From Psilocybe cubensis (lineage: Eukaryota): a DNA stretch of 64,000 nucleotides. The stretch spans positions 3,968,001-4,032,000 of the forward strand of contig CM038999.1 of the NCBI GenBank assembly GCA_017499595.2, written 5' to 3'. The translations under genes and the position numbers were made by a program. The notes beneath the pieces were generated by a model that saw only the letters and a program-made list of their open reading frames with translations, was not told where the DNA came from and did no database searches. Positions 1-45,500 of the stretch are shown piece by piece (positions within the stretch are counted from its first letter, which is position 1; the number at the start of each line of letters is the position of its first letter).

Positions 1-238
1 CGCTTCTGTTGCTTTTCTTCAGAGCACAAGTCAACTCAAAAAAATTGAACCTTAACAAAGATCTTGGAGATGAAATGCCGATACAAACATTGCATTGGGT
101 TTAGATATGCGAGTATTTCTCGGTTACATTATTAAATTTGGAAAGTCAGGATAGTGATGTGCAAAAGAGCGTAATACTTGGAAGTAAATTGGAATAAAAA
201 TTAACAGAAATGCACCCAGCTGCGCACCGATAGCCTTA

Positions 239-1450
239 TCATACGTTCGAGGAAGAAGATCCCTTCTCGGAGATGTCCTTGGCGGGTTCATCTGCAGGCC
301 GACTATTTTCATGGAACGCAGTTTCGCTCCTGTCCCTATCGAACTGTACCATGGATGGCTTGAAGGCTATCGAAGATGTCGTGATTTTATCTTCAGTATT
401 TGATGACCAGGCGCGACCCATTGCGACACGTAGAATAATGAGCTGAGGAGAGAGTGCCTTGTTCCCAAATAAATTTAATTCTGTGAATTCAAACAAGAAT
501 GACGGTTTGAAGACTTACAAAGAAAGTTCCCCAAATGAAGCCAAGAGCTACCTGAGGAGCCTGACCCTTAGACGTATATACTGCGAATATAATTCCCAAT
601 ATACTGAAGGGTAGGGCAGACTCGACGAGAATAGAGGCAGCCCCGGTGTAAACTTTGTGTGCCTCATCTGGAAGAGTACCTCGTGCACGACGACTGAATG
701 CCAGAATTCGATAGACGATCAGTCCAGTAACAATAAAGTTGAGTCCGCTGGTAAGCGAAATCCATGGAATAAAGAAGTTGGTAGAGTTGGCAAGAATGTG
801 ATTGTTCGGTAGAGCGCTTTGCATTGTTGTCAACAGGGAGAACGCTAAATTACAGAATTAATACCATTGGAAAGGGGATAGAAATAAATCCACTGACCCA
901 CTGAAGCCATATACAGCAAAAGAAGAGGAATTAGAACCCATATAGAGCGTCTCCATATGACATAGCACCGATACACCTAAGTATTTATGATTTAATATCG
1001 AACATGGTAAAGAGGTGAGATTGTTACCAATAGCGCATCCGCCATTATGTTGGCCACAACATCCATTGATGTACCGAGCGTCTCAAACCAGCTATTTGCT
1101 GATGCAGCATAGTAAGCAAGGGGGCCGCCTTCGTAATCCCGATGATTGATCCACATAAGCTGACCCATGACAGCGTTTGTGGCGAAGGCGAAAGTCATAA
1201 GAATGAGCAAAGTCATGGAGTACGCGATGTAAAAGTTATTCCTCCTTGCTTCTTGCCTTGTTTTCCTGTTGTATATCAACATATAGACTGACGAGAATGT
1301 GACACATAGAAGGATGCCTATGCAAACGATTTTTCAAAATTCGTACAATTATCGAGGGTTGATCAATGCCAGTGAAGGTGACTCACCATATAGGATAGTG
1401 GTAAAGCTTAATCCAATATAGATTGATAGCTCTATGGGCTGGGTAGACAT
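239..1450 (-). CDS. Spliced multi-pass (about 7-TM) integral membrane protein of an agaricomycete-expanded family
   Basis: ATG at 1450 (MSTQPIELSIYIGLSFTTILYG); ORF pieces 992-1282, 489-833 and 239-496 are joined by GT-AG introns; hydrophobic helices with ILVESALP and PQLIILRVAMGRAW motifs. Confidence 0.8.
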
Positions 1451-1962
1451 CTTCTGGATGACCGTCAAGAGGATGGGGGTCCTTCGACTGGATGCACTGG
1501 CCTGAAACCAGAGTTTGTTGATATATGTCGATCTCAGAAGGGTCCTGCACATGTGGGTAAGAACCTTCTTTGTTGACAACTGTTACCTCATGAACTGGTT
1601 CGAATTTCTCCCCAAGGGGCCAGGGATAACCTGAATCTCTTTACGTACTAACTCAGTCACAAGGCACAATGCACGCCCATGATATCGGACCTGCAGAGTA
1701 CGCGTCGCGTATCAGCTCATGTGAGAAATCTATTTATAGTCTGACACTTCAGGACCTCGCCAAGGCTTGGTACAGAATACTAGTAACTAAGCAGCTCGAT
1801 TCATCTGGCCCCTGGGCGGGAAGATGTTCTTAGAGATGTATACCCAGGTTCCATTTTATATACTGTAGCAATCACGGAGTCGTTGGTTCAGATAGGACTT
1901 TATAACGCATTTAACATCCATTACGGGCAGTTGAGAGCGGATACCATTTTTCCCTTCTAACC

Positions 1963-2623
1963 ATGCTCCCCAGCTTCTTTAACTCAGCAAAAAATACATT
2001 TCTACTCGCTCTAATCCTACTCCAAACAGTTCTCTCACTAATCGTGTTCCGGCTGAATTATGAAACAATCTTGGGCAAGCGGTATACTACCCAATCCTAC
2101 AGTAAGCCTGAGGTCAGAGTCTCTCGTTCTAACTGATTAAAACCAAGGTAATTCAGCGTATCTTGGGGATGACTATCCCCGTCTATGGGCTATCCCAAAA
2201 CGATCTCCAGTATTGCTGTTCTACGAGCCCCACACTTTACATTATGGACTAGACGACGATCAAGAGTGGAGCGCTCTGGCTCCCGGAAATGGGATGATAT
2301 TCCTGGGCGACAAAAAGGAGCCATTCAGCATTTCAATGTTCCACCAACTTCGCTGTTTGAATATAATTCGTCAATCTATAGTCCACAGGGATGTGCTAGC
2401 AGCCTCGAACCTGACAAGACATTGCTTGAGTTATCTACGTCAGATGATTCTTTGTCGTGCCGATACATATGCCGATGCCGACTCACTGGCGGACTTCATG
2501 ATTTGTGAGGATTGGCAAGCTGTCTATTGGGAGGTGGAAAAAAATCAGATGATGATGATTCCGTCAGCAGAATGTACGTCTTTGTTTCTTATCAAGTTAC
2601 AAATAGTTTTTGAATTATAAGGA
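1963..2623 (+). CDS. UstYa/DUF3328-family oxidase-like protein with variant metal motifs
   Basis: Exon 1 1963-2101 encodes a TM anchor (MLPSFFNSAKNTFLLALILLQTVLSLIVF); intron 2102-2156; exon 2 YLGDDYP...SMFHQLRCLNIIR...TRHCLSYLRQMILCRAD...CEDWQAVY. Stop is at 2620 if unspliced, or 2623 via a final GTACGT..TAAG intron. Confidence 0.88.
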
Positions 2624-3175
2624 TGCTTTCAGGATACTTGCTATACGCAAACGTTTCAAGTAATTCCTGACTTATTCGTGAAGGCAAAGGGGCATCCTTG
2701 GACCTTAGGCATATGTAATTTTACATAATCGAATGCATCCCAATGCTCCCAAAGTTTAAGTGCCCAATGTACTATGCGTAAAAATTGCTGTGGTTCGCTG
2801 GTTCGTAGTAGCATCAGCGCATCTGGAATGATGCTAAGCAACTTGACATACCCCGTATGGTGTAGTGTGGATATAGAACATTCTTTTCTTCCCTTCCGAC
2901 CCACGGCAACGCCGGACATCCTTAAGAACAACTTCCCAACACAATGGGATATTTCGTCATAAAAGTGAATACCAAAAATAGGCCTAGGGCTATATGGTAA
3001 TCTGGCTCCATGTTAGACTTATCTTTTAGTGATAAAGAAGCGCCGCAGATCTGCGCCCTGGTTGAGCGATGGTGATGTTTGCATTTTAACTCTTATACGT
3101 CCCGAGCACTCCCACACGCCCATCTCTATTAAACACACGTATCTAGGAGTAAGTATCCGAATTCAACGCCTTCCA

Positions 3176-4167
3176 ATGATTACTATGCTCCAATCACCCT
3201 CATATGCCCTTGTCAAAAATGAGGACGAAGAAGAGAGCGGTGCAGTCTCGCTTCCTCCAGGTACGTGTACTGTATGGTTATTCTACGCTTTGTAACAGTG
3301 TTGAAGAGGTATACAAGCACGGGACACTAAAATCGGGACGTACCTTGCACCCATCTCAGTCATATTTGTGGCTATATCTGCCTTTGTCAACATTTGTCTG
3401 GGCGTCTTGCTAATCTCCAATATGGGATTCGGTGCTCAACAAGACGTTTATCATGGAAGCATGAAAACCAACAGCACTTATATAGGATTGGACAGACTCT
3501 ATTCCAATGCTACGGCCTTCAAAATTTATCCTCCAATACGAAATCAAGCACGGCGGTTCTTTCAGATATCATCAGCATATCCTGAGAGGCAGTTAGCGGA
3601 GGAGTCTCCTAGAATAGCAGGCCCTACAGGGTTTATTCCTTCAGCGCGAGGCTTTTATCAATTACTTGTTTCGTCCGAAGTGAGTATCTCATTTTCTATG
3701 CAGTTCCATCCACTGAAAAATGTGGCAGATCTCTACTATAGTCGAATTTCGAGTTATTGACTATGGGATGGAGAATTGTAACCTATCCCTCAACATTCCC
3801 TCCAACAACGCCACTGACCAAGTTACCATCGCTTCAGAAGGAAATCTTGAAATCTGGCAAATAGGCGATATTAATACGAGAATCGATAGGAGCAATATTT
3901 CGTGGAACTTCAGACCAAAGCGAACTCGCTTTATTGCGTCGACAAGTGTTCAATATGGGACTTCCAAGCAATTTGAAAGCTTTAGATGCGTCTCAGGAAC
4001 GCATCTCACGTTTGAATTGGCGTGTACAGGATGTCACCTAAATGTTACTCGCTTTTCTGACAAAGTTCATGATGGTAAGCTCCCGGTACCGTTGCGTATG
4101 CTCCGACTGCTCACTCAAATACCACGCAGCGCTGTATATTGTTCAATCTCAAACCCTATCGCATTAG
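3176..4167 (+). CDS. Single-TM protein with But2 C-terminal-like domain
   Basis: Four exons joined by GT-AG introns; TM segment PISVIFVAISAFVNICLGVLLI; family-typical blocks STYIGLDRLY, VSSEISTIVEFRVIDYGMENCNL, ISWNFRPKR and C-terminal ALYIVQSQTLSH*. Confidence 0.75.
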
Positions 4168-5590
4168 TTGACATGTACTTAGATGATAGTGCTAACTTAC
4201 ATCCAGAACCAAGGGATGCTTATGTACTCTGAGAGATTTGGAACAGTTCATCTCTTAGATTCTCTAACGGAGTGATTTTTAACTTTGCTTTCGTTCTGTT
4301 CCAAAATCGACCTTCTTTGTTACGTTTCTTTGCGATGACCTGAGTGATTAAGTCCGCCACGGCTATCTCCGATGTGATGTAGAATGTATTCCTAGTAACA
4401 TTGCCTTGGCTTCGCGGTCTTTAGATTATCATTGGCAAGTTCTTCTCGAGATAGATTTCTTCATCTGCCGTCTTCTATGGCCTCATTGCCCGTCGGCTAA
4501 CATAAGTTAAGAGAATAAGTTCTTCCTCCCATTTCATGGCACCCCCAGCGGTGCCACGGCTGTACTGCCACATCATGATGCAGTAAGTTATTCCTATTGT
4601 AAGAAAGCAACGGAGCTAATCCAAATTCTATCCCCGTACTGTCAATGGAGCACTCACGTCTTTTTATTTCGAGAGCGAGAAAAAAATCTTGCTCACTCAT
4701 CGGTCGGAGGTGACATGTGTCTGAATCTGTCGCCAGGACTTTTAGATGTAATATGCTACTGCATTACAGAGCTAGGAGAAGTTGAACTGTCTTAAAGCTA
4801 TTTCTCCAGCGATATTTCTACAGGTAGATACTGAAAAAGATTTTTACCGCCAATGTATCCAGTACATATGCTCCGAATCTTTGCCGAGTCTGTACTTCGT
4901 GATGAAACACGGTGTCAATGGTTTCTCATAGTCGAAGTTCTGCCTCCAGGCTCAATGATGCTCGGACATATGCTCACAAATAACAGTGCGAATTTCGGTG
5001 CTTTTACATCTTTCATCGTAATACGAAGCAGGTTTTACTCAAGATGGGCATGACGACACGAAAGATATATTTGAAGGTACATGACATTACTTTTAGTACA
5101 GGTATCTCCTGGATCTGATCAACTGTCCTTGACCTCTTCATTTTACCGCCGGTCTAGAGACTGCGCAAGATCTTCAGTACGTCTATAACGATCATAAACT
5201 TAACAAATACAGAAATAATTCCTGGATCGTAGATAAATCTCGCTGACATTATTCAGTGGAACCTTGAGGTAAAAATAAATACAGGTTTCCACACACAAAT
5301 TCCATCTGAATGGTGCCGATCAGGCCACGCGAGGTTTGGTATTATATGGCCAGATCTTAAGCTACTAGAAATATCTTTTCTAGTATTCGAGTCATTCAAC
5401 TGCACGCTCACAATAAGAAAAACCTGGAATTCGAGGGTCAATTACAATACTCATCATTATTGAGGCTGAATTAGAAGCGACCAAGAAGTGCACGGGGAAC
5501 GGAGTCAGCGCCGCACCTTCATGCATCAGACTTTAGAATTCTTTCCATGATTTTCCGAGAACGTGGTTTAATAAAAGAAGGAAACACACG

Positions 5591-5598
5591 TATAAAAG
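5591..5598 (+). promoter_or_regulatory. TATA box of the small secreted peptide gene
   Basis: TATAAAAG 65 nt upstream of the ATG at 5656. Confidence 0.55.
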
Positions 5599-5655
5599 CA
5601 ACATGAATGGGACGTTAAACCTCAGTAACTTAACCAACCCATCACAAGCAGGACA

Positions 5656-5885
5656 ATGCGATACACAATTCAAACAGTCATCCTCGCCATTGTGGTCTTT
5701 GCTCTTCATGCACAGCATTCCTACGCTGCTCCTATTACCGATCAAGAGTTGAGAGGTACATCCCCTGCTCTCTGCAGCTAAAAGTATAATGTATACTGAC
5801 ATTGATTATTTTAGCTGAAGCTCTCTCTGGGTCACCTCTTGCAGCCTCAAATCTTACCCCCGTTGCCGATCCAAGTAATCCATGA
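5656..5885 (+). CDS. 56-aa small secreted peptide, candidate RiPP precursor
   Basis: Exons 5656-5755 and 5815-5885; 59-nt intron GTACAT..CTGAC..TTAG. Translation MRYTIQTVILAIVVFALHAQHSYA-APITDQELR-AEALSGSPLAASNLTPVADPSNP*, with a classic signal peptide ending SYA|AP. Confidence 0.75.
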
Positions 5886-6396
5886 TACCATAAAAGTACC
5901 CACCCATTTTCAAGAAGGGAAGAATGATAGAGAGAAAAGGGGCTAGACCATCAACCTTAGACGGATTCTTCACGACTTTTACCTTAATAATAATGATTTA
6001 AATTTTCAAAAAGAGGGAGTGAGCCACAAGTACTGAAAGGCGAATGCGAAAATAATACAGGGGTGGAAAATGAACATCTTAGCACGCAAAAAGTTCGAAA
6101 GATGTTACATTTATATTCCTTTAATATATGCATAAAAACTCGGGTCGTTCATGGACTGCATGGGAGTACCCTCTGCCATCATGCCCGTGCTTTGAGAACC
6201 ATCGCGAGAAAGCATGAGACTACTGTCTCTTCTTTTCCGTGGCCATGCGATACATGAACGCCAGCTTCAATATCCTAAATGGAGTAATCTAAATCAACGC
6301 CATCCGATCTCACCGTGATGATTTATAGAGAGCTAAACTTGAGCCAAATGTCCATCATTCGACTTACCCGCCGTCTTCCAGACTCGCTCTCGTACC

Positions 6397-7446
6397 ATGA
6401 TTGTAAAGCAGCTAAAGAATCCATCTGGTTGGTTGCCCTCGAACCTTCAGACGTCCGACCCGTCGTTTACTGAAATTAAACCCAGAAAGGGAAGTTGAAA
6501 GGATTGTCGAATTGACAGTCCGTGCTTTCTCTGGAAGTACGTGGAAATCTAGGAGCTTTCTCCACTTAGAACTTGCATGGCGCTGACCCACCCTTATTAT
6601 GAGTAGCGGTGCCAAATGCACCTTTTCTTGGCGGAGATTGGACACTGCACGCTGAGTACTGTCGCTCTCAGACAAGAGCCACCGCTCTTGAAGGTGAATT
6701 GTACGTTGGGGTCACGGAGAGCGGATTGATAGTATCCACCGCCTCATGGTTCCCTCCGGGACGGAGTATGTTTGATTCGTAAGTTCACACATCGCCGTGA
6801 CAATCAAGTACTTGAACCGCCCTTAGGGATGCCCAGAAGGCATTGGGCTATAATCAATTCCGAACGAAATTGAAAGCAGAGGCAAAGGAATGGGAAAATA
6901 ATATTGTAAGTCTATAACAAATCATCATCTAAGTATAGATAACTTTAAACCTCGTATCAGTTTGCAAAAATTGTCGTCGAGAGCGTCGAGACACTGTTTA
7001 CAAAAGAGGTGCATAAAGTCCCACTTGGTGGCCGCCGTTATTTTTTGATCTATTTTTTGACAGGAAATCGCTTCAAGATGGTGGTGTTATAATCTAGTGA
7101 CAGATCCCGCGTATCAACGCAGAGGATATGCTACAGCTGTCATGAAAATTCTGGCTGATAAAGTGAGTACATAATCGTCGTTAGCGCCTTTACTGCTGTT
7201 CATATCGCAAACGCCACTCAAGGCAGATAAACTAGATAACATACTCGGCTTAATCGCTACGACACAAGAAAACGTAAGCTGTACATAAATCACCCACTAA
7301 AAGGTTCATTTCCAGACGAGTTTTAGGTCAACTTCTACCGTGGTATTGGCTATCGGGAACGCGGATGTGTACATGTGCCAGCACCTACAGGAGATTTCGA
7401 CATGCATGTGATGGCTCGGGACCAGTCGTCAAAATCCTTCGACTGA
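6397..7446 (+). CDS. GNAT-family N-acetyltransferase (multi-exon)
   Basis: Hand-spliced: MIVKQLKNPSEREVERIVELTVRAF...RATALEGELYVG...STASWFPPGRSMF...WWCYNLVTDPAYQRRGYATAVM (acetyl-CoA motif A)...ENVNFYRGIGY...SKSFD*. Confidence 0.88.
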
Positions 7447-7894
7447 CTACATAGATACATCCCATGGGAACTAGCTCCTAGCTACTGCGATGAATAGATA
7501 GCTTCGGTGCTCGGAAATGGAAAATATCATGATTTGGGTTCTCATCATCTCGGGTTGGATCTCCGACGGAACTCACAAAGTGGCTTTTCTTCTCTACAAG
7601 CCAGAATACTCCAGCCTTCACACAGGCTGACTTTGGCCCATGGCCTGGCTGTGCAAATGTTTTCATTTTGGCTAGTAAAACTCACAGTAGGTTCTAATTA
7701 TATCTGATTGCAATGGAACCCGCCAGAACCGACGACGGGCGTTCGGAGCGGGTCATCACCGATCTTGCCTCGGTGGCTTTTGCAATCTAAATCTACTCCC
7801 GGTGTTAACCCATTGTTAACCACGTTGTGCCTAATCAATCTTTCGTTGGGGTAAAAAAGCAAATGGGATGCCACTCGTTTTCGTCAGTGCAGGC

Positions 7895-8702
7895 ATGGAA
7901 CCTCAAAGAACCACCTCAAACATATTGATTTTTCTTTGCGCTCTTTCATCGCTATTGTTCACTTCAAGTCTCATTTCTCTGTACTTCAATGATGCTCGAG
8001 GAACAACCTACTCGAGCAAGCCTAAAAGCTACAGTGCGTGCGAATTACATTTCCCCAGAGTGACCGTTAAAGTCCGATATATTTTGACGGTTCACTTGCA
8101 GCCTATACATGGGAGGATTACCCACTTGAGGTTCCAATCAAACTTGAACCTACACTGGAAGTCGTCGTCGAAGAAAGCGTGCACTACCAAGTAATCGGGC
8201 CCGAAGCCCACGATGAATGGATGTACGACTCGCCTCACGGCGAAGGCACCTTCCGCCTGGGCCCCAACCGGCACTACTCGACCATCGCCATGTTCCACCA
8301 GCTCCATTGCCTGCGTATTTTTCGCGGTGCCATCGCAGCGGGGCCGGACTACCCGATGAAGCTGCAGCGCCAGCACCTCGAGCATTGCCTCAACTATCTG
8401 CGCGAGACGACGCTCTGCGCTGCGGATCTCACACTCGAGCCGGGGGACTTCGCCCAGCGAGATTTCGATCTCCAACGTACTGGCGCTACGCATATGTGTC
8501 GCGACTATCGGGAGCTTTATAAGTTGTCCGAGAACGACTGGGCGGACTGGTATGTATACATGTATCGACATAATATATCATGTAAGTTGTCTCCGAATTT
8601 GACAGCCCTTCAAATGCTTCGTGTACTCATTCACAAATTATAGTGTCCGAGTTGAGGGAGAAGCAACTAAAGGAAATCGGAGAGCTTGCGTCCATTACAT
8701 AA
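7895..8702 (+). CDS. UstYa/DUF3328-family oxidase with two intact HxxHC motifs
   Basis: Exons 7895-8033 (TM anchor; alternative ATG at 7868), 8102-8581 and 8644-8702; AMFHQLHCLRIFR and QHLEHCLNYLRETTLCAADLTLEP, HMCRDY. Confidence 0.92.
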
Positions 8703-10457
8703 AGGCTGGAGTATACCGCAAGGCATTCTCTGCCCGACAGACATTCAATAGTAGACTCAAGGCACATTTAAAATTTAGTGTGTTTACCAGCGGTCAATGG
8801 CTTCAATACAAAGTCGCGCAGGGTTGTAGATGCCAAGCTCCGTCGTAAAAAGCGCCGAAAATTGTAAATACATATAGACTATCCATTCTTCAAACTCCGT
8901 TTACAATAGACAATAGAACTAGATAGACCGCTGGAATAGATCAAAACGCGAACATTTTCACCAAGTTTAATCGCGAGCTAAAATTGGAAGTAATTTCCAA
9001 TTCCGGAAGTAGATCTAAAAATAGCTTATCGACTTATCGAGGAGTTTTCAACCTTGTCAAGTTCATGTTGATGCAGCGATGATCATGGATTCTTACCCGT
9101 TAGTTCTTACTCCTCTCATTATATGCCCCTGATACTCATCATTACAGCCTCTTATGGGCTTGCTATGCATCAATCCAAAAACACTGTTACACATCCAGTA
9201 TCGCTCGCTCCGCTGGACACCGTTACGGCGCGCTCGGTCCATAATACCGATTCATCATTCCAAACAAACAGAGATACCCGAGTTACAGAATGAAAAGATG
9301 CAGCTCCCAAACTCGTAGTGTATCAGCGGAACATAGCACACGAATCAAGTCCAACGTATCATGCCAGTGGAATGGTCCTCATCGACGGACTATCAGCGTT
9401 AGCGTGCGGGGCGATCACCCATTTCGGCAATGTCGACACGACAGCAAATTCATTTATCCTGTCGACTTGCAAATGTACAAATGTGGGTCCGCCCCCCTGT
9501 TCCTCCCCACTCCCCCACCGATCTAATAGTAATAGTAATAACCGTGTTGATAAGTCGAAAACACTCCCATCGCGTTTATCATTTTGCAAATTGTCCCTGC
9601 CGTTAGCTTGGGGCGCGCGTGGCTGGCTGAACAGAGCAGAACTGAAGACTTGTTTTATTCGATGATATGATCGGATTGCCTTTGCCTTGAATGAACGCGA
9701 CATTGTGGCAGCGCAAAGTTCTTCGATCGATGATCTCCCGGTGTAAGTGTAAGGATGACGGCCTGAGGCCTGAGCTAGTCTGTAGAGGGGAGGGTGTGTG
9801 TGTGTTAAGCGCAAGCAGGTAATATGGGTATCAATTATCATTACCAATGACGTCTGCGCCTATTTCCCCATGTTCCGGCCCTGAAGGAACGATTGTTAAT
9901 CCAAACCAGCAATTAGGCGCCTCGTTGCGAACCGAGTGTGATGAAATGAACTTGTACTAATATATAGTAACGTTGATGGTTTGAAACTTCTTGAAGCTTG
10001 TAAGCCTGCCGCCTTACTACACTATCGTTTCTGCTGTATATATACTGTCCATCATTAAGAAACATATCGATTCTTTTACCTTACCGGTTTGAGTGTAACT
10101 ACTGTGTTCGGACAGACAATGTTAAACGTTCAAATTTTCAAATTTTCAAACCTTAATGCACATACAATAATTTTAAGAAATCATAGCGATCCATAGTACA
10201 ATTCGAAACCATATACAAAGCATATGCATCAGTAGCAACAGCAAGTAGCAGATATACAACACAGAAAGTTTTAAAAAATTGAAAAAAATGAAAGCTTTAA
10301 GCAAACCCATGCAAAAGACACACACACAAAATAAATCAAAATCAAAAGAAAAGGAAACAGAAAAAGCAAAAAGAAAAAAAGAAAACACTCAAATCCCGAC
10401 TCCAAAGAATCCTACACATTCACAAAAATCAAAACTACCCAAACTCAAAACTCATTT

Positions 10458-13400
10458 TCAAAACCCCCTAAGCGCACTCGCAACCCTCGCAAGCCCATCA
10501 AACGACAACACACCCCTCCACTCCTCCCGCACACCATCTTCTCCATACTCATATTCATGGCGATCTCTATGATGCCCTGGCCTCTGCCTCTGCGTCACAT
10601 ACAGTCCGCTAGCGCCAGCGACATTGCGAGGGTTGTTTTCCCCGACACGCCGGGTTTGCTGCTGTACAGGCATAGACACAGACACAGACACAGGCACCTG
10701 GACATGTACAGCTGCGAGCGGCTTCGTGCTGACATTCGAGAGCGGGTATTGGCCCCGTGCAGCTGGAACGACCAGGTTCTTCGTTCTACCTCGCTGATCA
10801 TCCACATCGGCATTGGCGTGCGCATTTTCGTTGGTGTCCGCATTAACATTAGATGTCGGCACCGGCGCTAGCGCTATCGCATCCTCTTCCACAACTTCAA
10901 CTTCAATCGAAGGTTCCATGAGCGCAGGAGGAGGCGCCAAAGGCGGCGGCACAGGCGTCCTTTCCTCACCGCTCCCACTCGCGCCGACCCTGATCTGTGG
11001 AGGTACATACGCGTGGTTATTGTTGCTGTGGTTATTGATGTTCAAATCGAAGCCTCCAACATCATCATCGCCATCGCCATCGCCGCCTCCAAGTCCCAAT
11101 CCAAGCCCGAGCCCGAGCCCCATCCCCATCCCCATCCCCATACCGTAACCAAGTCCATACCCACCATCATCCTCATCCTCATCCATGAATTTATACGCCG
11201 CGTTCTCGTACTCGTCTTCGTACCCAGACGGTGGGCGGGACACTTCTTTTGGTCGTGTCTGTGAATTGAAATTTATTGGATGAGCAGCATCCGCGTCCGC
11301 GTCGTCGTTGTTTTGCTCAGAGTCTTCTTCTTTTTCTAGAGTTAGTTGTAATTGTATAAGCTGCTCACGCTCCTGCGCGTCAATCTCCTCTTCGCGCGCT
11401 TGCGCCTGCACCTGCATGGGCTGAGGCTGATGCTGAGGCTGCAGCTGAACGTGCTGCTCCATCACCTCACCTCCAAGGACGACAACCTCCTCAACATCCA
11501 CACCAAGGTTCATCTTCTCCTCCCCCTCCCCTTCCCCCTCCTCGTCCGAGCTCGCCGCATCCACATCACCATGAGCAAACTCACCACCGTCCACCCCACG
11601 CGCGCGGCTCAGGCTTCTCTGTCCCCTTCCTCGTCCTCGTCCTTGTTCTTGTCCCACACCTCGCGCACGGCTCACGCTCCGCATGCGCATGCTCATCCGG
11701 CTGCGGCTCCTACTATAACTGCCAAGCCTGCATCGGCCTTCCTCATCCTCCTCCTCCTCGTCGTCGTCGTCGTAACGAGAGTGTGAATGAGAATGAGACC
11801 GCGCCCGACGCTCTTCGACGCCCACATCCATCATGCGCATCCATATCTTATGCACATCCGTGTATTCGTCTTCATCTCCGTCTTCGTCTTCTTCTCCTCC
11901 TTGGCCTTCATCCTCCCGCTCCTGGCTCTCTCCATCTGCGCGCGTTCGTTTGCCTTCGTTTGAGAGGGATATCTCCTCAGCAAGGACATCAAGCACCCTC
12001 TTCTCCTCCTCGTCCTGTGCCTGCACTTCCTCCTCCCCTCCCTCTTCACCACCACCACCCGCCTGAGCCCGACAAAGCGCCAAATACCCCAACGCAAGAC
12101 TAAGCGCGTCCTCCCTCCTCTCACGCGCACTCATCACGCGAATACGCACGTTCCTCCGCGGCTGCTGCTGCTGCTGCAGTGGTGGTGTTCGCCTAGTAGC
12201 GCGCTTTTGGATTTTGGTTTGGGTTTGATGCCGCCTACACCCATGCGCATGCGCGTGCGCGGTCGGATCGTCTCGCGTACGCGTACGCGTACGGCCTTGT
12301 CTACCTTCATCCACCTCATCCTCATCCTCATCCTCATCCTCATCCTCTTGCTCACGGTCCCCATCCCCATCCCCATCACCCTCATCCCCATACTCATCCC
12401 CAACCCCAACCCCAACCCCAGACGCAGACCCAACACCAACCCCCATCCAAAGCCACCCACGCATCCACACCCACGCAGCACGCATCTGGCGCGCGCTCAG
12501 CGCCGTCGTGCCATCTACATAGTGCGCCCGTTCGCTTTCGCTTTCGCTTTCCGCGGGTTCTTGCTCCGTCTTTGGATCTGCCTCCTTTTTTGGCTGAGGC
12601 TCTGGATCCGTTTTTGTCTGGCGCTCCGTTTTTGTCTGGCGCTCCGTTTTTGTCTGGCGCTCCGTTTTTGTCTGGCGCTCCGTTTTTGTCTGGCGCTCCG
12701 TTTCTGGCTGAGGCTCCGTTTTCATCTCTGCATCCACCGCTGTCACAGCCGCCGCCGCCGACGCCGACGCCTCGACAGCAACATCACGACGATGACGAAG
12801 ATGAAGCAGAGCACATGAACGCGCCGCATCCGCGTCTGCGTCTAAATTGTCTCCACCCAGCTTGGGCATCTCATCCCCGCTCGCAGGCGTCCGCCCAGGT
12901 GTCGACCCAGGTCCAGGTGCGGGTCCGGGAACGGGTACGGGTAAAGTAATAGGTACAGAGAGCGGAACGGGTTCAGGGAGCGTGAGCACCATCGAATGCG
13001 ACCGCGGGCGCGGGCGCGGGTGTGTTCGCGTCGTCGTCGTCGTCGTCGTCTTTTGGGGGACACACACCACTTTGCCCCCTTTACCCCCCACCTCCTCCTC
13101 CTCTACTTCCTCATCTTCCTTGAATCGTCCTTCATACCCCGCCTCGGCGTCCTCGTCGTCACTCACACCATCAACATCAATCTCAACCTCCTCCTCCTCC
13201 TCGGCGTCGTCGTCATAAAGCACACTAAGCACAACCTTCCGCATCCTCTCCATCTTAGCTCTCTCCAAGCCTTCCTCATGCGCGTACGATTTCCGGCTCT
13301 CGCCCCCTCTTTCATCCCCAGCCTCCTGCGATCCCACACCCGCACCTTCGCCAAGCACGCCCAAATCAGCCTCACCCACACCCAAACCCTCATGCTCATG

Positions 13401-14531
13401 ATCATGATCATCCTCATCCTCGAAATCAAACACCCCAACTTCGACACCCTGCCCTAAATACTGCACCCACCGCGCGCGACGAGCTTCCTCCTCCGCCTCC
13501 TTCTCCTCTGCATCCTTCTCGATATCCTCCACATTCTTCTCATGAACATCCTTCTCCTCCGCGTCATCCCACGAGCGTTTCATCGCCGCGCGCGCAGCGA
13601 TCGTTAGTCTCGCTGCACCTGCACCTGCACCACTACCACCACCCGCACCCGCGCTGGCAGCAGCAGCAGCAGCATTAACCCCTCCATCTCCATTCCCATC
13701 TACACCCTCATCCCCATCCTCCTTCCCATCCGCCCCCGTCCTCGCACATCCCTCACACCCACCCGCACCCACACCCGCACCCACACCTCCACCCACACCC
13801 CTCTCACCCTTCGAGCGCACCACAAAAGGCAACGGCGCAAACGTCGTTCTCTTCATACCCGCTCTCCCCTTCCCCTTGTCCATCTCCCTCGAATTGGCCT
13901 GCGGAGACGCAAAGGTCGATTTCGCAGGTGTACCAGCAAGAGCCGCAAGCGACGACGAGCGCGGCCGCGGGCGCGTGCCTGCTAGGATCGATGTCGGTGT
14001 CGACGTGGACGGTACTGCGGGGAGAGTTGGGAGATTCTGCGTTTGAGTCTGCGTTCGTGTGCGTGTTCGGGGGGTTTGTAGTGTTGGGACAGGTAACTGT
14101 GCCTGTGTAGACGTAGACACAGGAGCAGGAGCAGGAGCTGACGCAGACAGAGCGGGAGGAGGAGGAGGAGGGGGCATGTGGCTGTTATGCACGGGGTACA
14201 GCGTATACGCAGGCGGCGCGCCGCCCATCAAGCGCGTCATTGTCGTCGGTGTATCCGTTCTCTGCACCTGCACCTGAACCTGCGCCTCCAGCTGTATTGA
14301 GCTTGAAGCAGGCGCGTTTGTCGGCGGTGGTGGTGGTGCAGGTGCATCCACATTCGCGTTACCCGCATTTCCACCGTCACTCGAGCTCGAATCAGCACCG
14401 CGGACTCGCATCCTCAAAGGCGTCGGCGTCTGTCTCTGTCTCTCCATCTGCGTCCTCGATCCACCCGCACCACGTTTCGCTTTTGACGCGCGCCTAGGCA
14501 AGCTCGCGCCACTCGGACCCGGCGAGAACAC
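10458..14531 (-). pseudogene. 3' part (1357 codons) of a low-complexity gene disrupted by the transposon
   Basis: Long ORF with no ATG at its 5' edge, starting immediately next to the transposon target duplication; joins in frame with 22180-23301. Confidence 0.8.
12604..12722. repeat. Coding 18-bp tandem repeat, about 5-6 copies (TERQTK)
   Basis: Repeated TCCGTTTTTGTCTGGCGC. Confidence 0.9.
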
Positions 14532-14533
14532 AG

Positions 14534-14561
14534 TGTCGGAAATTTCGGGATAGCCTTACAA
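14534..14561 (+). repeat. Left terminal inverted repeat
   Basis: Matches the reverse complement of 22152-22179 at 24/28 positions. Confidence 0.9.
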
Positions 14562-15619
14562 TGATGGGGCCTAGATTAGGCCAAAATTTGGCTTCTAATG
14601 TGATTCGGCTCTCTTAGAATGCCGACTTTTGCCTTGCGTTGGATTAGATAAATATAGAAGTCATGTGTCACTCACTTGTAAAGAGGGGCAAATGAAAATG
14701 ATTTATAGAATGTATTTAGAGGACCAAATGCGTATTTATTTTGAGAAAATGTGAGTGCTAAATGTACAAGCTACCGTAAGAAACCTACTGAAGTTGAAGT
14801 TGATCCATATTACAACCATACGAGGCCTTACAACTTGACTGTGACTAACGTCACACACATACACAGCAAGTGCAAAGTTGTCAGGCATTCAAGGGATGGT
14901 CAGTATAGATATATCAAATTGGACAATTTTCTACGTCATTGTGGATCATTTACACTTTATTTTATGTACTTTTAGTGCTGTGTCAATATCCCTGCAGTTT
15001 GTGCGCCATAGAGCACAAGTAAGCAAAGGGTCACGGCCGTGAGAAGAATGTCACATGGATCACGCGACACAGTGGACTTAGAAGAAAATCACATACATCG
15101 TCTACGTCTTCACCAAAGTAACTGTTTATGTAGCACATGCTATCTACAAAGGTAAATAATCTAGGGTACGGTGGATAATCAGTAATTCCACACGAAGAGA
15201 GACTAATTTTGAACATGATACATGGGAAAGAATGATTTGACTGATATCTCATAAGTTGATGCATTGTAACTCGGTGTTGATTGTTGTATGTTGCATGCAT
15301 ATTGCACTGTACAACTATGGTAGTACTGCCTTAATCATCAACAATGAGAATCTTTAACCTCTTAAAGACCTTTGTGCTGGATACTATGACATATTTTGAT
15401 AGATGGTTACTAGAATACATGTTCTGGCAGACTAAATTGATGAACTGATTATGGTAGCTTAGTGATGTAGCGCAGCAGAATGATGAAACTAGGGCCTATG
15501 AGACGAATAATCTCCAGCACACTCTATATTAGATGCTGGTAAAATAGTATAAAAGCAGTTGGATCATATTTAATTCTTTATCTGCTCCTCTTTCTGATAT
15601 CTTCTTTACTTTCAAAGAC

Positions 15620-18600
15620 ATGGCTAACCGCCGCCAGCCAAAGGACCAATTGTGCCCAATATGCAACAAGATGTTTAGCATCCAAGGCATTGCTCAACAT
15701 ATCCGATCATGTAGTGGCAAAACACCAAGTCTGGATGCACAGAATGCTTTTGGAGATTTTGCAAATAGGGTTTATGAAAATAGTATGTCATAGTGTATAA
15801 TCTAATTATTGACATTTACCATTCAAAACTCATACAGACTCTCTACATTATACATCAATTTTAAATGCTGCTATTAGCCACTCTCCAGCTATACCAAATG
15901 AGGATTCTACAACCGCTTCTTATTCTGCTATAGATATGGCTCAAATGGAGACACAGGATTCTCTAAATGGTCATCATATTTCCCTTTCAATGGAGCCGGA
16001 AGATTCAATTGAGCCAGTCACAAATCAATCCTCTATACTTCAAATGCTTGATGAAATTTCAAATAATCATTTGCCCCCACCGCTTCCACATCAAATCTGC
16101 ATTGAATTTCATCCAAGTGCAAATATGCCACCAAAATTCATTCCTACACACCAATATAATCCAAATTCCTATCAAACGTCACCAACACCCCATTCTACCA
16201 GTACCAACCCGTGGCATCCATTTAGGACACGTCTTGACTTCGAAGTGGCAGAACTTGCACTTAGCTCACATATGAATAGGCAGCAAAAGCAGATTTTATT
16301 AACCCTTATTGACAGAATCAAAGAAAAGCCAGAGCAGTTTACAATTGACAGTGTATCAGAGCTTGAGAAGACCTGGGAGCTTGCTCGTAGCTACCGTTCA
16401 ACTGGAGTGCGTAATATTTTTTCTATTTTGTAGTTGTACTAACTAATACTATGGAGTACAGTTCCAGAAAAAGGAATATCTTGTACCATACCAAAATGAT
16501 GAAATTGGGTATGAAGTGTATATCCGGCCACTAATTGAGTGGTGCAATAGTCTTCTTCAGAATCCTTCTCTACTTTCACAGTTTCATTGGATTGCTGAAA
16601 GGCATTATAAACAAAATGACGGTAAACGAGACCGGTTGATTGGAGAACCATGGACTGCAAATGAATGGTGGAGCATCCAGGTAGATGTATATATTTTTCT
16701 TTTTACAAATGTAGAATACTTATCATCCTACTCTGCTTTAGAACCTTCTTCCCAATGGTGCATTACCATTTTTTATTATCCTATATGCAGACAAAACTCG
16801 GCTATCCACCTTTGGTACTGCAAAGGCATATCCAGTGCTTGCTCGCTGTGCAAATCTTCCAGCAAATCTTCGAAACAGTGATGGTATTGGTGGGGGAATC
16901 CTAGTTGGATGGCTGCCTATTGTAAGCATTCTAAATGTTATAAATTTTTTTAGTATTAAACTCCAAATATGGATTTCTAGGTTGATGAAGATGCTGGCGA
17001 GTCAGGAAAGAAAATTTTTGTAAACTTCAAGCGTATTGTTTGGCACAAAGGATTCCACGAAATTCTTAAGTCCGTTCAAGAATATGCCACAACAGGATAC
17101 TATGCACAGTGTGCAGACAACATTGTCCGGTGGCTATTCTTCTTTATTTTGATTTTATCAGCGGATTATGAAGAGCAGTAAGTAATAGTTTACTTCAATA
17201 TAATTGTTATAGTAAATGAAACTGTTGGGCGCCTATTTTATAGATGTGTTATGGCCCTAACCCGTGGTGCTACAAGCAACTTTCCGTGTCCTGTATGCTT
17301 GGTTCCAAAGGAAAATTTATCAAATCTTACCACGGTATACCCTTATCGAACATCAGCAGAAATGAAACACATATATACAGAGGCACAAAATTTTACAGCT
17401 AAAGATAAGGAGAATTATTTAAAAGAATATGGATTACGAAATGTAGAGGTATAGTGCATTATATATGTCATTATTCTTGATTAATATTTCCTACAGAATG
17501 TATTTTGGATGATGAATGGGAGTGATGTATATAAAGCTCTTTCCTGGGATCGACTACATGCATACCATGGTGGACTATTTTCTGATCATTTATGGTCAGA
17601 ATTTAAGGCTATTATTGATAGCTCTGGAAGGAAAGATGCTGAGATTATTGACAATCAGTAAGCATTGATAATATAACCTCTTGATGGATAAGTAATAATA
17701 AGGTTTATGCTTTTATAGATTTGATCAAATTCCTCGATGGAGTGGTCTTAATCACTTTGCATCTATAATTAAGACAGGAGAATTTGCAGATGGAACAAAA
17801 TATGAAGATATAGCAAAGGTACACATGCATTTTTTAGACACTAATTGTGAATATAATATATCTGTGATTTCTAGATCATTTGTTATGCATCTCATAATGT
17901 TCTAGAGAAGTCAGACCGTGGATATTGTCTGCTCAAGCTTATGCGAAGCTTTGTAGAATTGGATATGTATTCATCTTTGATTATTCATAGCAGTACAACA
18001 TTACATGGGTTACAAAAAGAACTTGCAAAGTTCTGTTCTATTCTTGAGGTAAGGCATTCTCCAATTCATATGTAGACCCAATTAATTCTCTCAACAATAA
18101 AATTTCCAGGAATATATTCAACTCCATCCAGACAAAAATTGGAATTTTCCTAAAATCCATTCACATGTCCATATGATTCAAGATATTGTTGCAAAAGGTG
18201 CAACTCGGAACTCTAATACTAAACCCAATGAAAAGGCACATGGCTTGCTTAAGCTCTGGTACCGCTTTCACACCAATTTCAAAGATGTGGCGCCACAGGA
18301 ATGTGCTTTAATTCATGTGTACAATATTATTTGTCTGATCTAGTAAATTTGCTTCTAACAGATATTAAAAATGAACCACGATGATCTTATTGCAATGATT
18401 ATTCGCATGGATATCAATGCTATTGATGATCTTGACATGCCCAAAGAGGACGGCGAAGAATCACTTATATCTACACCACAAGTTTCCAATCTTGGAAATT
18501 CATTGGGTAACGGTCTATTTGTTTGTACATGTATAATGTTATTAAATTGACATTTAACAGGATCAAGTAATGAGAAAAGAGCTCAAAGTCACATTTCAAT

Positions 18601-33987: not shown

Positions 33988-35968
33988 ATGGACAAGGTCT
34001 CCTCCCGAACTTCTGGTGATCCCGAGAAAGTACAAGACCGCAGTAGCGTCAGCAGTGGATCTCCTGTAACCGCCAGGGATGTTGACCCAGCTTTAGAGAA
34101 GAGGATTTGGCGAAAGATGGATCTTTATATTCTCCCGGTTGTGACACTGTTTTATCTGCTGTCGTTCTTGGTGAGCGGTTTACGGCCTCCCCGCACTCCG
34201 ATGGGCGTTTACCTAACTGCAAATACAGGATCGATCCAATATCGGAAATGCACGAGTCGCTGGTCTGCAATCAAACCTCAAGATGACGAACAAGCAGTAC
34301 AGCATTGCCTTGACTGTAACCTACGTTCCCTATATCGCTGCTGAGCTTCCATCCAACTTGCTGCTCAAGGTACGTGCGACCTAATTGTATACATGGCTAG
34401 TAAAACTCATTCAGAAACTCTAAAGGCTGTCGGTCCCAATCTTATGTTACCCACCATGTTGACTCTCTGGGGTATCGTCACTACTCTGCAGGGTCAGTGT
34501 TTTGTTAATTGTCGACCCGTTCAAAGAAACTAAATAATTTATCAGGCGTGGTGAAGTCATACCATGGACTACTTGCTTGCCGTTTCTTCCTGGGCCTATT
34601 CGAAGGTACAATCTATCACTACCAACTTAATCCGTAAATTGACCCTGACTTGACGTTGACGTTAGGTGGTGTGTTCCCCGGATTAGTTCTATATTTATCC
34701 TTTTTCTATCCACGACAAAAGCTTCAGTGGAGGTTAGTTACGATATTGTTCAGCATATTTCACTTTTGATGAGTTCTTCTGCTCCACAACAGGGTGTCTG
34801 CCTTCTTCTCTGCAGCTTCTATTTCGGGAGCCTTCTCTGGCTTACTAGCCTTCGGCATTATTAATATGAAGGGCGTCGGTGGACGTCCAGGCTGGGCATG
34901 GATTTTCATTCTGGAGGGCCTCTTCACCGTCGTCTTTGGGGTGTTGTCCTACTTCCTCCTACCAAGATCTCCCGCCCATGCCCGTTTCCTCAGCTCCGAC
35001 GAGAAAGACTATGTCGTTGCTGCGCTCAAACGAGACGGTGCTACCGGCAAGAACGACACCGTTGACAGCTTCAGCTGGAGGGAAGTTGGCGAGGCTTTCA
35101 AATTGCCGCAAGTATGGATGCTTGCTGTGATGTTCTTCTTCGATGGTACGGACAACTTTGTTTCAACAGAGGACAGTAATCTAAGCTAACTTATTTGATC
35201 CAGGGACCATTCTATATGGACTGGCCTAGTACGTCCATCAGTCGCGCTATACCTTCTCTGTCTGACTATATTCTCTTTAGCTTCACACCGTCAATTGTGC
35301 AGAGTCTTGGCTACACGGCATCCAGGGCTCAACTGATGAGCGTACCGCCTTTTGCGACTGCGTTTGTCGGTAAGGCTCATTATTATTCCTGATTTTAAGC
35401 AATTCTCACCGTAGTTTCTAGTCTCCATGGCTGGTGCCTTTATATCTGACCGCTACCGATGCCGTGGTCTCGTTACCATCTTTGCTTCAGTTCTTGCAGT
35501 GATTGGATTTGCAATGTTCCTAAGTACGTCCTCAATATCGCTCTAACCCTTACGCACGATATTTATCCTTTTCTAGAATCGACCAAGCACAAGATTCAAT
35601 ACGCATCTTTATTCTTCTCCATCACTGGAACGTATCTTGCTGCACCTAGTCTCTCAACCTGGAGTGCCAACAACGCTGCCCCATACACCCGCAGAGCAAC
35701 GGCCATAGCCATCGGCTTCATTATGACAAACTCTGGTGGTATTCTTGCAACATGGCTACTTGGATCGCTGTCCCCCGCGCCGCACTATACCCTTGCCACA
35801 CGGGTTCTTCTTTCCTTCGCCGTCATCATGGGGGTCCTCGCTGGTCTTAATACGTGGTACCTGTGGGATCAAAACAAAAAGAAGGAGGTTATTCGGTCTT
35901 CTTCTACCATTGACCAGGAGAAACCTGGTCTTGGAGATCGCTCTGCATGGTTTGTTTACGCTCTTTAG
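33988..35968 (+). CDS. MFS transporter, anion:cation symporter (Dal5/allantoate-permease-like)
   Basis: RIWRKMDLYILP, DRSNIGNARVAGL, ELPSNLLLK, SGAFSGLLAFGI, GWAWIFILEG, AQLMSVPPFA, WSANN..RRATAIA; many short introns. Confidence 0.93.
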
Positions 35969-42572: not shown

Positions 42573-45500
42573 ATGGAAAATCTCCTCCGGTTCAAGAATG
42601 CCATTTCTAGCTGTACACATATGTGTAGAGGCTCTGGCACCAACAAGCCAGCCTATACGGCACATTCACCAACCGCCACTCATGAGGCAACCGCCAAAGA
42701 CAAGAGCCCAAATCATTGGCGATATAAACGATTGGTCTCCAGTTCCCTCTTTTTAAAATTTAAGCGTCGCTCGACGACACGTATCACTGCACACGACAAC
42801 ATATCCTCCACCCCAACACTAGAAGACGCCAGAAAACTGCTCGACGGGAAGGACCAGAGCCCTCAACATAAATTGCTTGTCCTCCATGTGGCACACGTCA
42901 TCGAAAACACACCTAACCTTCGTAATCTGGTTGTAGAGGTTGTACGACTTGTCCAACAGTCAGAAGTACGTCAATGCTTCCATCGTATTTCCGTTCCCTT
43001 GATAAGGATGTTTCATCCCATGATGTCAGTGTGAAGATGTCGCTCAGGTTACGATTGAGTTTGCCACTCAGTTGATTACAGCATTTGAAGACCCAAGCCG
43101 TTTTCCTAACGATCAAACACGGCTATCTGAACTCGTGTTAAATTTCCTTAGGTAGGTCATATCACGGACGAGGTATTACACAGCTGATTAAACATCATTA
43201 AGTATTTTGAAATCGGCAAATGCAAATGGTATACAGAGGACAAAGGAGCAAGTTATACATTCTATCAGGCAAATCCTCGTAAGTTTTTTGCATGCTCGCT
43301 CTAAGATGCTAAATCATAACAAGCCCCAAGACAAATCATTATGATCTGTTCCGTGGAAGTGACAAGAAAGACTCCTGGTTGTCATGCCTTAAAAGTGAAT
43401 GTCTTGGGCCAACCTTGTCTATGTTACACATCATCCATACAAGTGCCTCAATAGTCCCTGTTCCGATGGTTCAGCCACTTATAGGGATCATTGCTGGTCT
43501 ACTCCAAGCCACCGAGGTATTTTATAGCCGGTTTATTACATTAATTCAATGACTTTAATGTTAACAATTTGCTCAGCAAGCCTGCAGCAACTATGAATGG
43601 ATGAGATGGCTTTCTGTTACAGCTGCGGAGTTTGTTGTTTCCATTGCTGCCGTAGTTGGTTCTGTTGAGAAGCCTAGAAAGGAATGGCTTGAGGCAATCG
43701 ACGTATTCCAAAAGTAAGTCGTCGTTATGCTAGCTATAGTCATCCGCGATTTATTTTATTGTTAGAAAACTCTTCAAAATCGTCAAAGAAGCACAGCATT
43801 TTTCAAAGCAGAGCGTCGCTACCCGATTCCTCCAACAAGGGAGTCATAAAAACGCTATTGAATTCATGAAAGAAGACCTCAAGAATGCTATACATCACTT
43901 CAATGTAGGCTAATTTTTCGTTCCATGATTTCATTTTGAATTTTAATAACAATCTACTTATAGATTCAAACCAAAATGAGCATTAAGGCGGATATTTTGC
44001 AGATGGCGCGCCAGATTGGTACGTGCAGAAATTCTGGGCGACTCTGTATTTAAATGACATCTGGTGTGTATTGTAGAGGTTTGCTCGCTGGAAACGCTTC
44101 CTCGTTTGACAGATTATGATGTCAATTCTCAACATGGCCGTTACAGGATCATACAGGAGGAGTCAATCAAAGATGTATTGCATTGGATTGAAGACTCAGA
44201 TGGAATGACCTTCTTCTGGATTCAAGGTGCTGCCGGCATAGGAAAGTCGACATTGGCCCATGGACTGTTTGACATCCTAAAGAGCGAGGGCCTTCTTGCT
44301 TCATTTGCCTTCTTTTCCATTGGTAATAGCTTGTGCCCAAAGGACCTTGTCCGGATGATGGCTCGAGAATTATGCAGCTTACACCCCGGGTCTCGTATGG
44401 CAGTCGCGCTGGCCATAGACCATTGTTCTGGGGTACATCACTCTCTCGAAAAATATCTGATCGATTTCATTGCAGCACCAATATCTACATTGGGCTACGC
44501 GGGACCACTTGTTATTATCATCGATGGACTGGACGAATGGGATAAAAGGCTTATGTTACTTGATGCCCTGCGTCGGATTAACCTGCCAGTCAATCTGAAA
44601 TTTGTCATTACAAGTCGTTATTCGCCGGATATTGAACAGGCCATTGAGGGAAGTTTCACCCAATACCAGTTGGCCCATGTGTCGGAAGACGTTTGCTACA
44701 GGTACTTCAAGGACAATTTTCTTGCAAAAGGAATCAATGGCGTAGATGAAAAACTGCTGCATGACCTCGTCGTGAAAACTGACGGGTATCTCATGTGGGC
44801 CGCAACCGTCTTCTCCCGTATATCCATTCCAGATCCGAAGAGAACAACGCTACAAATCCTCGAGAATATTGCCTTACCGTCTTTTTATTCTGCGGAAGTA
44901 AATTGGATGGACGACTTTTATCGAGAAGCATTGGAACGAATTCTGCCTCATCAACACGCCAGATCATGTCTCGAATTATTTCTTTCAATGATGGCGCTGA
45001 GGGAAGCCCTCCCTCTTCGGGAATTTTCCCGCTTGATTGATTTGGAGGAGCATTTTGTCAAGACTGTCTACTCCCAATTGAGGGTGCTGCAGACTCGGGG
45101 GAAATTCCATGAGGGAATAGTGCAACCTGCCACACAATTATTCCACACCTCATTCATCGAGTATTTGGGTCGGGTAGACAAAACTCTGAGTCCAAATGGC
45201 GTCATGGCCGTGAACTGCACACGCTTTTTCGTAAAAATGGTTCGGGCAGGCACTGGATTTGTCAAGCTTCAAGAAGCGGAACATTATGTTGGAAATCACT
45301 GGATGGACCATTTATGGGAGAGTCCCTCGGAAACCAAAGGCTTCCTGGAGACATTTCCACATCTTTCAAGAAACCACATATGTGTGCGTGGTAAATGCTT
45401 GCTGCCTCACATACGCCTCTATGAGGCTCTGAAGCCTTCGCCCGAGGTAATCCCCTACATCCCAGTTTTCTTCAGCTCTCTTGGGCATACGTATATAGGC

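Follow-up and report, generated by a model that had tools for sequence, protein, structure and literature searches.

Described DUF3328 systems and the Psilocybe cubensis locus

The clusters of the ascomycete dikaritins (ustiloxin, phomopsin, asperipin-2a and victorin) often contain several DUF3328 paralogues. UstYa/DUF3328 proteins, anchored in the membrane and carrying two HxxHC motifs, are the class-defining enzymes of these pathways (PMC12048977, in part). Here we analysed a 64,000-nucleotide stretch of Psilocybe cubensis DNA (contig CM038999.1, positions 3,968,001 to 4,032,000; hereafter the window), in which two UstYa/DUF3328 genes, g1 and g5, bracket a But2-C gene (g2), a hypothetical open reading frame (ORF) of 56 amino acids (aa; g3) and a GNAT acetyltransferase gene (g4) between positions 1963 and 8702, with a gene for a seven-helix membrane protein (g0) lying just upstream on the opposite strand. 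On balance, we favour the view that this locus is the P. cubensis copy of a five-member gene module (g0, g1, g2, g4 and g5) that recurs in many mushroom-forming fungi and works as one functional unit; the DUF3328-centred module is real and apparently undescribed.

With the dikaritin clusters the module shares the class-defining DUF3328 enzyme. It differs from them in having no Kex2-processed repeat precursor, as judged by a crude scan, and no tyrosinase, methyltransferase or cytochrome P450 gene was found; its constant partners are But2-C, seven-helix and GNAT proteins, half of the motif histidines are replaced in one of its two paralogues, and its host is a basidiomycete. That DUF3328 proteins are two-copper oxidases is a recent finding (PMC12435403, in part). 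CctR, the cyclochlorotine enzyme described there, is a membrane-anchored, disulfide-linked dimer in which the four motif histidines hold two coppers and activity is lost when any His or Cys is replaced by Ala, and for which its authors expect an accessory protein delivering electrons or Cu(I). The likeness to g5 lies in the motif His and Cys residues, which are invariant in an alignment of 15 g5 relatives. However, CctR is a homodimer acting on a non-ribosomal peptide and is encoded beside a non-ribosomal peptide synthetase (NRPS) gene, whereas the module has no nearby NRPS gene and carries a conserved His-depleted paralogue.

In Agaricomycetes, for example Termitomyces, antiSMASH reports 'fungal-RiPP-like' regions (RiPP, a peptide made by the ribosome and modified after translation) on a DUF3328 match alone and with no known precursor, at least in the portion of PMC11455885 that deals with them. 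The present locus would probably be flagged alike; the conserved partners are, however, not addressed in that portion, where the region described combines DUF3328 with an AMP-binding enzyme instead of the But2-C, seven-helix and GNAT partners seen here. As for But2-C (PF09792) proteins, those of other fungi are mostly secreted and of unknown role (PMC12581995, in part). Schizosaccharomyces pombe But2 and the secreted fungal But2-C proteins have the Pfam domain in common with g2, which differs from them as a type-II membrane protein of about 270 aa with a DYGMExC motif and four cysteines, genomically tied to DUF3328. For the lumenal domain of g2, the neddylation role of But2 would be implausible. 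In the literature searched, with subscription journals outside its coverage, no link of UstYa with But2, with the seven-helix family or with a heterodimer was found.

DUF3328 genes are numerous in mushrooms, where they are flagged 'RiPP-like' and have no known substrate or partner. A fixed partner set (His-depleted paralogue, But2-C, seven-helix and GNAT proteins) provides concrete candidates for co-expression and makes the function of the basidiomycete DUF3328 enzymes directly testable, while the widespread But2-C family of secreted and membrane proteins acquires, for the first time, a genomic connection to a function.

Conserved co-location in related loci

Related loci were Joint Genome Institute (JGI) metagenome contigs fetched with A1, an alignment of 15 of the g5 relatives described below. 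A total of 292 stretches matched; 214 of these passed confirmation, and the 80 best, 417,518 bases in all, were retained, with UstYa proteins 27-56% identical to g5. These loci were probed by tblastn with the spliced window proteins and by tblastx with positions 1-16000 of the window. Relatives of g2 were found beside UstYa in 29 of the 80 loci, relatives of g0 in 22 and relatives of g4 in 17, with control proteins from the window (NACHT, laccase, MFS, Rpb3 and DUF6697) giving 0/80 each. It was tblastx that revealed the conservation of the minus-strand gene g0: lying upstream of 1963-8702, it is a conserved module member that the first-pass annotation of this DNA had overlooked.

Dereplication, by which loci sharing at least 300 bp at 90% or higher nucleotide identity were merged, left 54 groups. 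Among the 22 groups with a representative of at least 5 kb, the seven-helix family was present in 13, But2 in 12, the g1-type UstYa in 11 and GNAT in eight. All five families occur together in three loci (L002, L014 and L034), each with an arrangement of its own. Writing M for the seven-helix protein, U1 and U2 for the g1-type and g5-type UstYa, B for But2 and G for GNAT, the window reads M- U1+ B+ G+ U2+, L002 reads M- G+ B- U1- U2+, L014 reads G- U2+ M+ U1- B+ and L034 reads G- U2+ U1- B+ M+; the head-to-head pairs U1/U2 and GNAT/U2 are recurrent. Membership is thus kept despite rearrangement and divergence, which argues for selection on the grouping, and g1, g2, g4 and g5 are grouped far more than by chance. 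The co-occurrence that the first-pass annotation had proposed to look for is therefore seen for the protein genes, the UstYa pair, But2-C and GNAT recurring together in diverged relatives. It does not extend to the 56-aa peptide, of which tblastn found a relative in none of the 80 loci.

Near the modules, 160 ORFs reach 115 aa or more; a Pfam scan of 135 of them, the other 25 being overlapping alternative frames, gave no further recurrent family except S33 hydrolases (three loci), and single finds were a BBE/FAD gene (L042) and a TRI5-like gene (L055). The S33 alpha/beta-hydrolase (aminopeptidase-like) genes flank UstYa in one sub-clade (L053:3256-4107, L053:7946-8686, L068:6803-7612 and L076:3649-4602). 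In NCBI, a Favolaschia protein with a UstYa domain alone carries the name 'hydrolase-4 domain-containing'.

Gene models and transcript evidence

The window, which is fungal DNA, contains short GT..AG introns, and two UniRef proteins bearing P. cubensis names are 100% identical to its products (g2 and g5). Gene models were built by hand and then compared with the assembled contigs of a sequencing run, X10, labelled as RNA by guess; these contigs are taken as spliced transcripts because they skip GT..AG introns exactly. Fifteen joints (GT..AG or CT..AC) were found across g0, g1, g2 and g4, all four of which are spliced in this single run, with g5 present at low depth only. No X10 contig lies over 4201-6300, a blank that includes the 56-aa ORF and carries no weight either way. 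On distant conservation the other runs are uninformative, X9 being closely related (about 99% identity over the region) and X11 and X12 consisting of a few short near-identical pieces. Coordinates are collected in the table.

Table. Positions of the module genes, the 56-aa ORF and other features in the 64,000-nucleotide window
Feature	Position	Strand	Length	Exons
g0, seven-helix membrane protein	239-1450	-	325 aa	1450-1387, 1317-1028, 976-898, 844-519, 457-239
g1, UstYa/DUF3328, 'U1' type	1963-2634	+	185 aa	1963-2101, 2157-2573, 2633-2634 (intron splits the stop codon)
g2, type-II membrane-anchored But2-C protein	3185-4167	+	273 aa	3185-3260, 3318-3679, 3729-4074, 4130-4167
g3, hypothetical ORF	5656-5885	+	56 aa	5656-5755, 5815-5885 (including stop)
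g4, GNAT	6397-7446	+	216 aa	6397-6427, 6486-6536, 6607-6778, 6827-6905, 6961-7008, 7064-7162, 7223-7273, 7327-7446 (8 exons)
g5, canonical UstYa/DUF3328, 'U2' type	7895-8702	+	225 aa	7895-8033, 8102-8581, 8644-8702
Open frame with low-complexity repeats	10458-14555	-	1365 aa	
Plavaka transposase fragment	16447-16881	+		
MFS gene	34773-35968	+		
NPHP3_N/NACHT NTPase gene, long exon	44058-46337	+		
MFS/sugar transporter, first exon	53495-54226	+		
MFS/sugar transporter, first exon	57639-58193	+		
Laccase-type multicopper oxidase, exon	61318-62220	-		

The first-pass annotation had placed five co-oriented genes in 1963-8702. Five ORF sets are indeed present there, all on the plus strand, and as genes g1, g2, g4 and g5 stand on Pfam matches and X10 splicing or cover, which is not the case for the 56-aa ORF. 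Its further descriptions of two bracketing DUF3328 genes, a single-transmembrane But2-C-like gene and an acetyltransferase gene agree with the profile matches given in the following sections. Between g2 and the 56-aa ORF, about 1.5 kb (4168-5655) contain no recognisable gene, conserved segment or X10 cover, a long gap for so compact a region.

The two UstYa/DUF3328 genes

The UstYa profile PF11807 (cut-off 25 bits) matched the main exon of g1 with an E-value of 6.8e-11 (42.9 bits) and that of g5 with an E-value of 2.6e-17 (63.8 bits). Both introns of g1 are present in X10 contigs. For g5, with low-depth cover over 7701-8400, the intron positions are those of the hand model, the first paralleling that of g1. 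A hydrophobic N-terminal anchor was read from the translations of both. The g5 match in UniRef is 100% to P. cubensis and 85% to the Psilocybe cyanescens orthologue. The UniRef model of g5 (P0002, 194 aa) uses a different start frame, without the membrane-anchor exon seen in relatives, and our model fits the family better.

A search with the g5 exon gave 113 relatives among 128 candidates, with names including Mycena, Lactarius, Russula, Suillus and Dentipellis. In A1 the columns H, H, C, H, H and C are invariant. In g5 itself both HxxHC motifs are present (HQLHC and HLEHC), whereas g1 has HQLRC and LTRHC, neither of them canonical, so that two of the four copper-ligand histidines are replaced. 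The first-pass annotation had overlooked the loss of both canonical motifs in g1. The same difference runs through the related loci: among g5-type rows, the first motif is HxxHC in 56 of 64 (6 not covered, 2 HQIRC) and the second in 58 of 64 (4 not covered, 1 gap, 1 QLAHC), while among the 25 g1-type rows 19 have HxxR/KC and 4 have HxxHC as the first motif, and the second begins with Leu in 17 and with His in no covered row. The g1 type also misses the TLEPGDF loop conserved in the g5 type, with two later cysteines kept.

A tree was built from 66 UstYa rows, excluding matches shorter than 110 aa, rows with stops and non-representative loci. The 17 motif-variant (g1-type) rows form one clade (support 99/96), as do 33 g5-type rows (support 99/97), and the two clades show parallel sub-groupings. 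The g1 clade is an old sister clade, an anciently diverged paralogue of the g5 type. Since every motif His and Cys is essential in CctR and the g1 motifs have changed, g1-type proteins are, by analogy, probably not canonical two-copper enzymes; in the simplest reading they would be conserved, co-inherited and dimer-competent partners of the canonical enzyme. A PDB sequence search with the UstYa profile found no relative. Complex prediction for the g5, g1 and But2 domains together scored 0.66 vs. 0.68 in a control with chain 1 replaced.

The But2-C, seven-helix and GNAT partners

In exon 3 of g2, the But2 profile PF09792 was matched with an E-value of 2.7e-10 and 41.2 bits (cut-off 24.2), and the N-terminus has a hydrophobic anchor. 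The model is identical to the UniRef P. cubensis protein P0001, which carries a precomputed PF09792 annotation, and X10 supports introns 1 and 2 out of the three, the first (3261-3317) having been corrected from an earlier model. The But2-like family comprises 413 representatives at E ≤ 1e-3, most of them of about 270-295 aa with the same layout, and the DYGMExC motif and four cysteines are conserved in it.

The AlphaFold2 model of g2 (predicted local distance difference test score, pLDDT, 82) shows a helix at residues 31-61 and a beta-sandwich. Foldseek returned seven matches at E ≤ 0.001, among them a chondroitin-sulfate-binding module (E 2.9e-7), a porphyran-binding carbohydrate-binding module and prodomains of BMP9. 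Weaker matches, beyond E 0.001, were to CBM6, meprin/MAM and Eph ligand-binding domains. These jelly-roll matches to binding modules argue that the modelled lumenal domain of g2 is a generic binding module and not a redox fold. A PDB sequence search with the But2 profile gave nothing of note. Two other ideas about this domain were dropped. A cupredoxin-like copper or electron carrier was rejected on the jelly-roll fold and the absence of a conserved His/Cys/Met cluster, and a YIGLD motif ahead of the sandwich, considered as a hidden core peptide, was set aside as conserved, not variable, and modelled within the domain.

Concerning g0, a spliced X10 contig covers 76-1520 with four CT..AC joints, and the protein shares conserved motifs and about seven hydrophobic segments with its relatives. 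Its three largest exon frames matched no Pfam family, DUF6534 and DUF6533 included, not even with the threshold relaxed to E 10. In an atlas comparison, hypothetical Basidiomycota clusters scored 0.96, and the nearest named families, DUF6534/DUF6533, scored 0.83 and 0.78, which are leads only. A second, more diverged seven-helix-like membrane protein occurs in L021, L023, L039 and L063.

The GNAT profile PF00583 was found on a single 33-aa exon of g4, only just above its cut-off of 20.7 (E 3.5e-4, 21.3 bits). All seven introns of g4 are held by a single X10 contig, and the start was corrected to the ATG at 6397 with an extra intron (6428-6485), without which the frame looks broken. The acetyl-CoA loop of GNAT enzymes has the consensus R/Q-x-x-G-x-G/A, to which QRRGYA of g4 corresponds. 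This stretch is conserved in the relatives as Q-x-RG-[YF]-[AG], along with subfamily motifs, and g4 has no signal peptide.

The 56-aa ORF and the precursor question

The 56-aa ORF opens with an ATG and a signal-peptide-like segment, is interrupted by a 59-nt GT..AG intron with a CTGAC branch site, and is preceded, about 65 nt upstream, by a TATA box (TATAAAAG). The tblastx comparison of positions 1-16000 with the 80 loci gave nothing at 4101-6400, whereas all flanking genes match, and a collection of 5.8 billion clusters yielded no protein of 27-88 aa with three words in common with the ORF, even though the neighbouring P. cubensis proteins g2 and g5 were returned from this collection. In the 32 aa predicted for its mature part, Tyr, Phe, Trp, Cys and Lys are all missing, Arg occurs once and there is no dibasic site. 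Known DUF3328 cross-links use aromatic residues, the dikaritin core having a Tyr or another aromatic residue (ether or C-C link). As a gene, the 56-aa ORF is unsupported by independent evidence and is not a conserved module member; at best it is a lineage-specific addition and not the defining precursor. 

A crude script working on single-exon frames found no Kex2-repeat precursor in positions 1-16000 of the window and the 54 representative loci; its sole match, at 12518-12721, was rejected as an out-of-frame artefact in a low-complexity gene. Signal-peptide-like ORFs in the intergenic DNA of the modules numbered 18 vs. a mean of 4.0 in mononucleotide shuffles. In a better control, 45 such ORFs starting from ATG were counted in 73,267 bp inside module spans (6.1 per 10 kb) vs. 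84 in 204,137 bp outside (4.1 per 10 kb), and most of those inside are UstYa anchor exons. Small signal-peptide-like ORFs of 43-76 aa lie within related modules at L002:5910, L034:12014, L042:4615 and L042:6439, all on the minus strand. The two of L042 resemble each other, none resembles the 56-aa ORF of the window, and the L002 ORF sits, like the latter, between But2 and GNAT.

A functional unit and its rivals

Conserved co-occurrence, together with the splicing of four of the genes in one run, supports a functional unit. The five members would act together at the secretory-pathway membrane: g5, by analogy with CctR, would oxidise a lumenal substrate with O2 at a two-copper centre, g1 would pair with it as a non-catalytic or half-site subunit of the dimer, binding or presentation of the substrate would fall to g2, and g0 and g4 would provide transport and acetylation on the cytosolic or membrane side. 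Several points weigh against this. The metagenome loci carry no species names, and as some of them could be paralogous copies of the module within a small number of genomes, the 54 groups cannot be counted as 54 separate lineages. Short contigs are frequent, which makes absences uninformative and the fractions rough, and every locus was found from a single seed family, that of g5. Near the modules, neither a backbone enzyme (NRPS or polyketide synthase, PKS) nor a precursor that could be recognised is conserved, and g4, having no signal peptide, would be separated by the membrane from the DUF3328 and But2 domains. Transcription was seen in one RNA-like run only, and the promoters share no k-mer: no 7- to 9-mer is common to all four, and words found in at least three are no commoner than in shuffles.

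The first-pass annotation took the locus for a peptide-modification system in which the 56-aa secreted peptide is a single-core precursor; on this reading the two UstYa enzymes would modify it in the secretory pathway and GNAT would acetylate it. What remains of this is a functional unit around secretory-pathway DUF3328 oxidases, the precursor assignment being unsupported. The ORF does lie within the module and on the same strand, with a plausible signal peptide, intron signals and TATA box, and comparable small ORFs are found inside some related modules. Set against this are its absence from the related loci and the lack of any conserved segment or word-sharing protein, a mature peptide devoid of aromatics, Cys, Lys and a dibasic site, signal-peptide-like ORFs hardly denser inside module spans than outside, a g1 without half of its copper ligands and a GNAT without a signal peptide; such a RiPP cluster is very improbable. 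A wider version of the idea, a new class of fungal modified peptides, would have the canonical DUF3328 protein and its His-depleted paralogue form a heteromeric copper oxidase, with But2-C as presenter and the seven-helix protein as helper, acting on short, lineage-specific, non-repeat secreted peptides encoded within the module (the 56-aa ORF and those of L002, L034 and L042), fixed in position and free in sequence. We put it forward as a speculation with little chance of being right.

Better placed, though still on the unlikely side, is a module whose substrate is either a ribosomal peptide or protein encoded elsewhere, such as a repeat protein processed by Kex2, or a small molecule of non-ribosomal origin. 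DUF3328 enzymes act on ribosomal as well as non-ribosomal peptides (PMC12435403, in part), in Basidiomycota a DUF3328 gene lies near only 103 of 1680 Kex2-repeat proteins (PMC7329392, in part), conserved precursor-like or backbone genes are missing from the loci, and the S33 hydrolase genes adjoin UstYa in the sub-clade of L053, L068 and L076; yet no positive link leads from the module to any particular substrate, and the Kex2-repeat scan was a crude one of single-exon frames. Shared descent alone, that is, an ancestral neighbourhood segmentally duplicated and slowly decaying with no shared function, could draw on the possibly few genomes with many paralogous copies behind the loci, on the multi-copy nature of UstYa (16 in Pleurotus ostreatus; PMC8893723, in part) and on the failure to find a shared promoter motif. 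It fits poorly with a membership that persists at 27-50% protein identity while order and orientation are shuffled, with the recurrent head-to-head pairs (GNAT/g5-type and g1-type/g5-type), with the blank result for the control proteins and with the parallel sub-groupings of the two UstYa clades, and we consider it improbable.

Other features of the window

The wider window is consistent with an agaric genome, having a Plavaka transposase fragment and DUF6697, NACHT, MFS and laccase genes. Downstream of the module, the 1365-aa open frame has a GC content of 0.51-0.61 and low-complexity repeats (TERQTK five times); it matches no Pfam family and has X10 cover at its 3' end (10151-10500). The Plavaka fragment (PF18759, E 5.2e-9) lies in an AT-rich stretch with a GC content of 0.36-0.38. 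The long exon with NPHP3_N/NACHT NTPase domains belongs to a fungal NOD-like receptor (NLR)-like gene. Two MFS/sugar-transporter first exons that resemble each other and are separated by about 4 kb are probably a tandem pair, upstream of which lies another MFS gene. Finally, the laccase-type exon matches PF00394 with an E-value of 1.6e-38.

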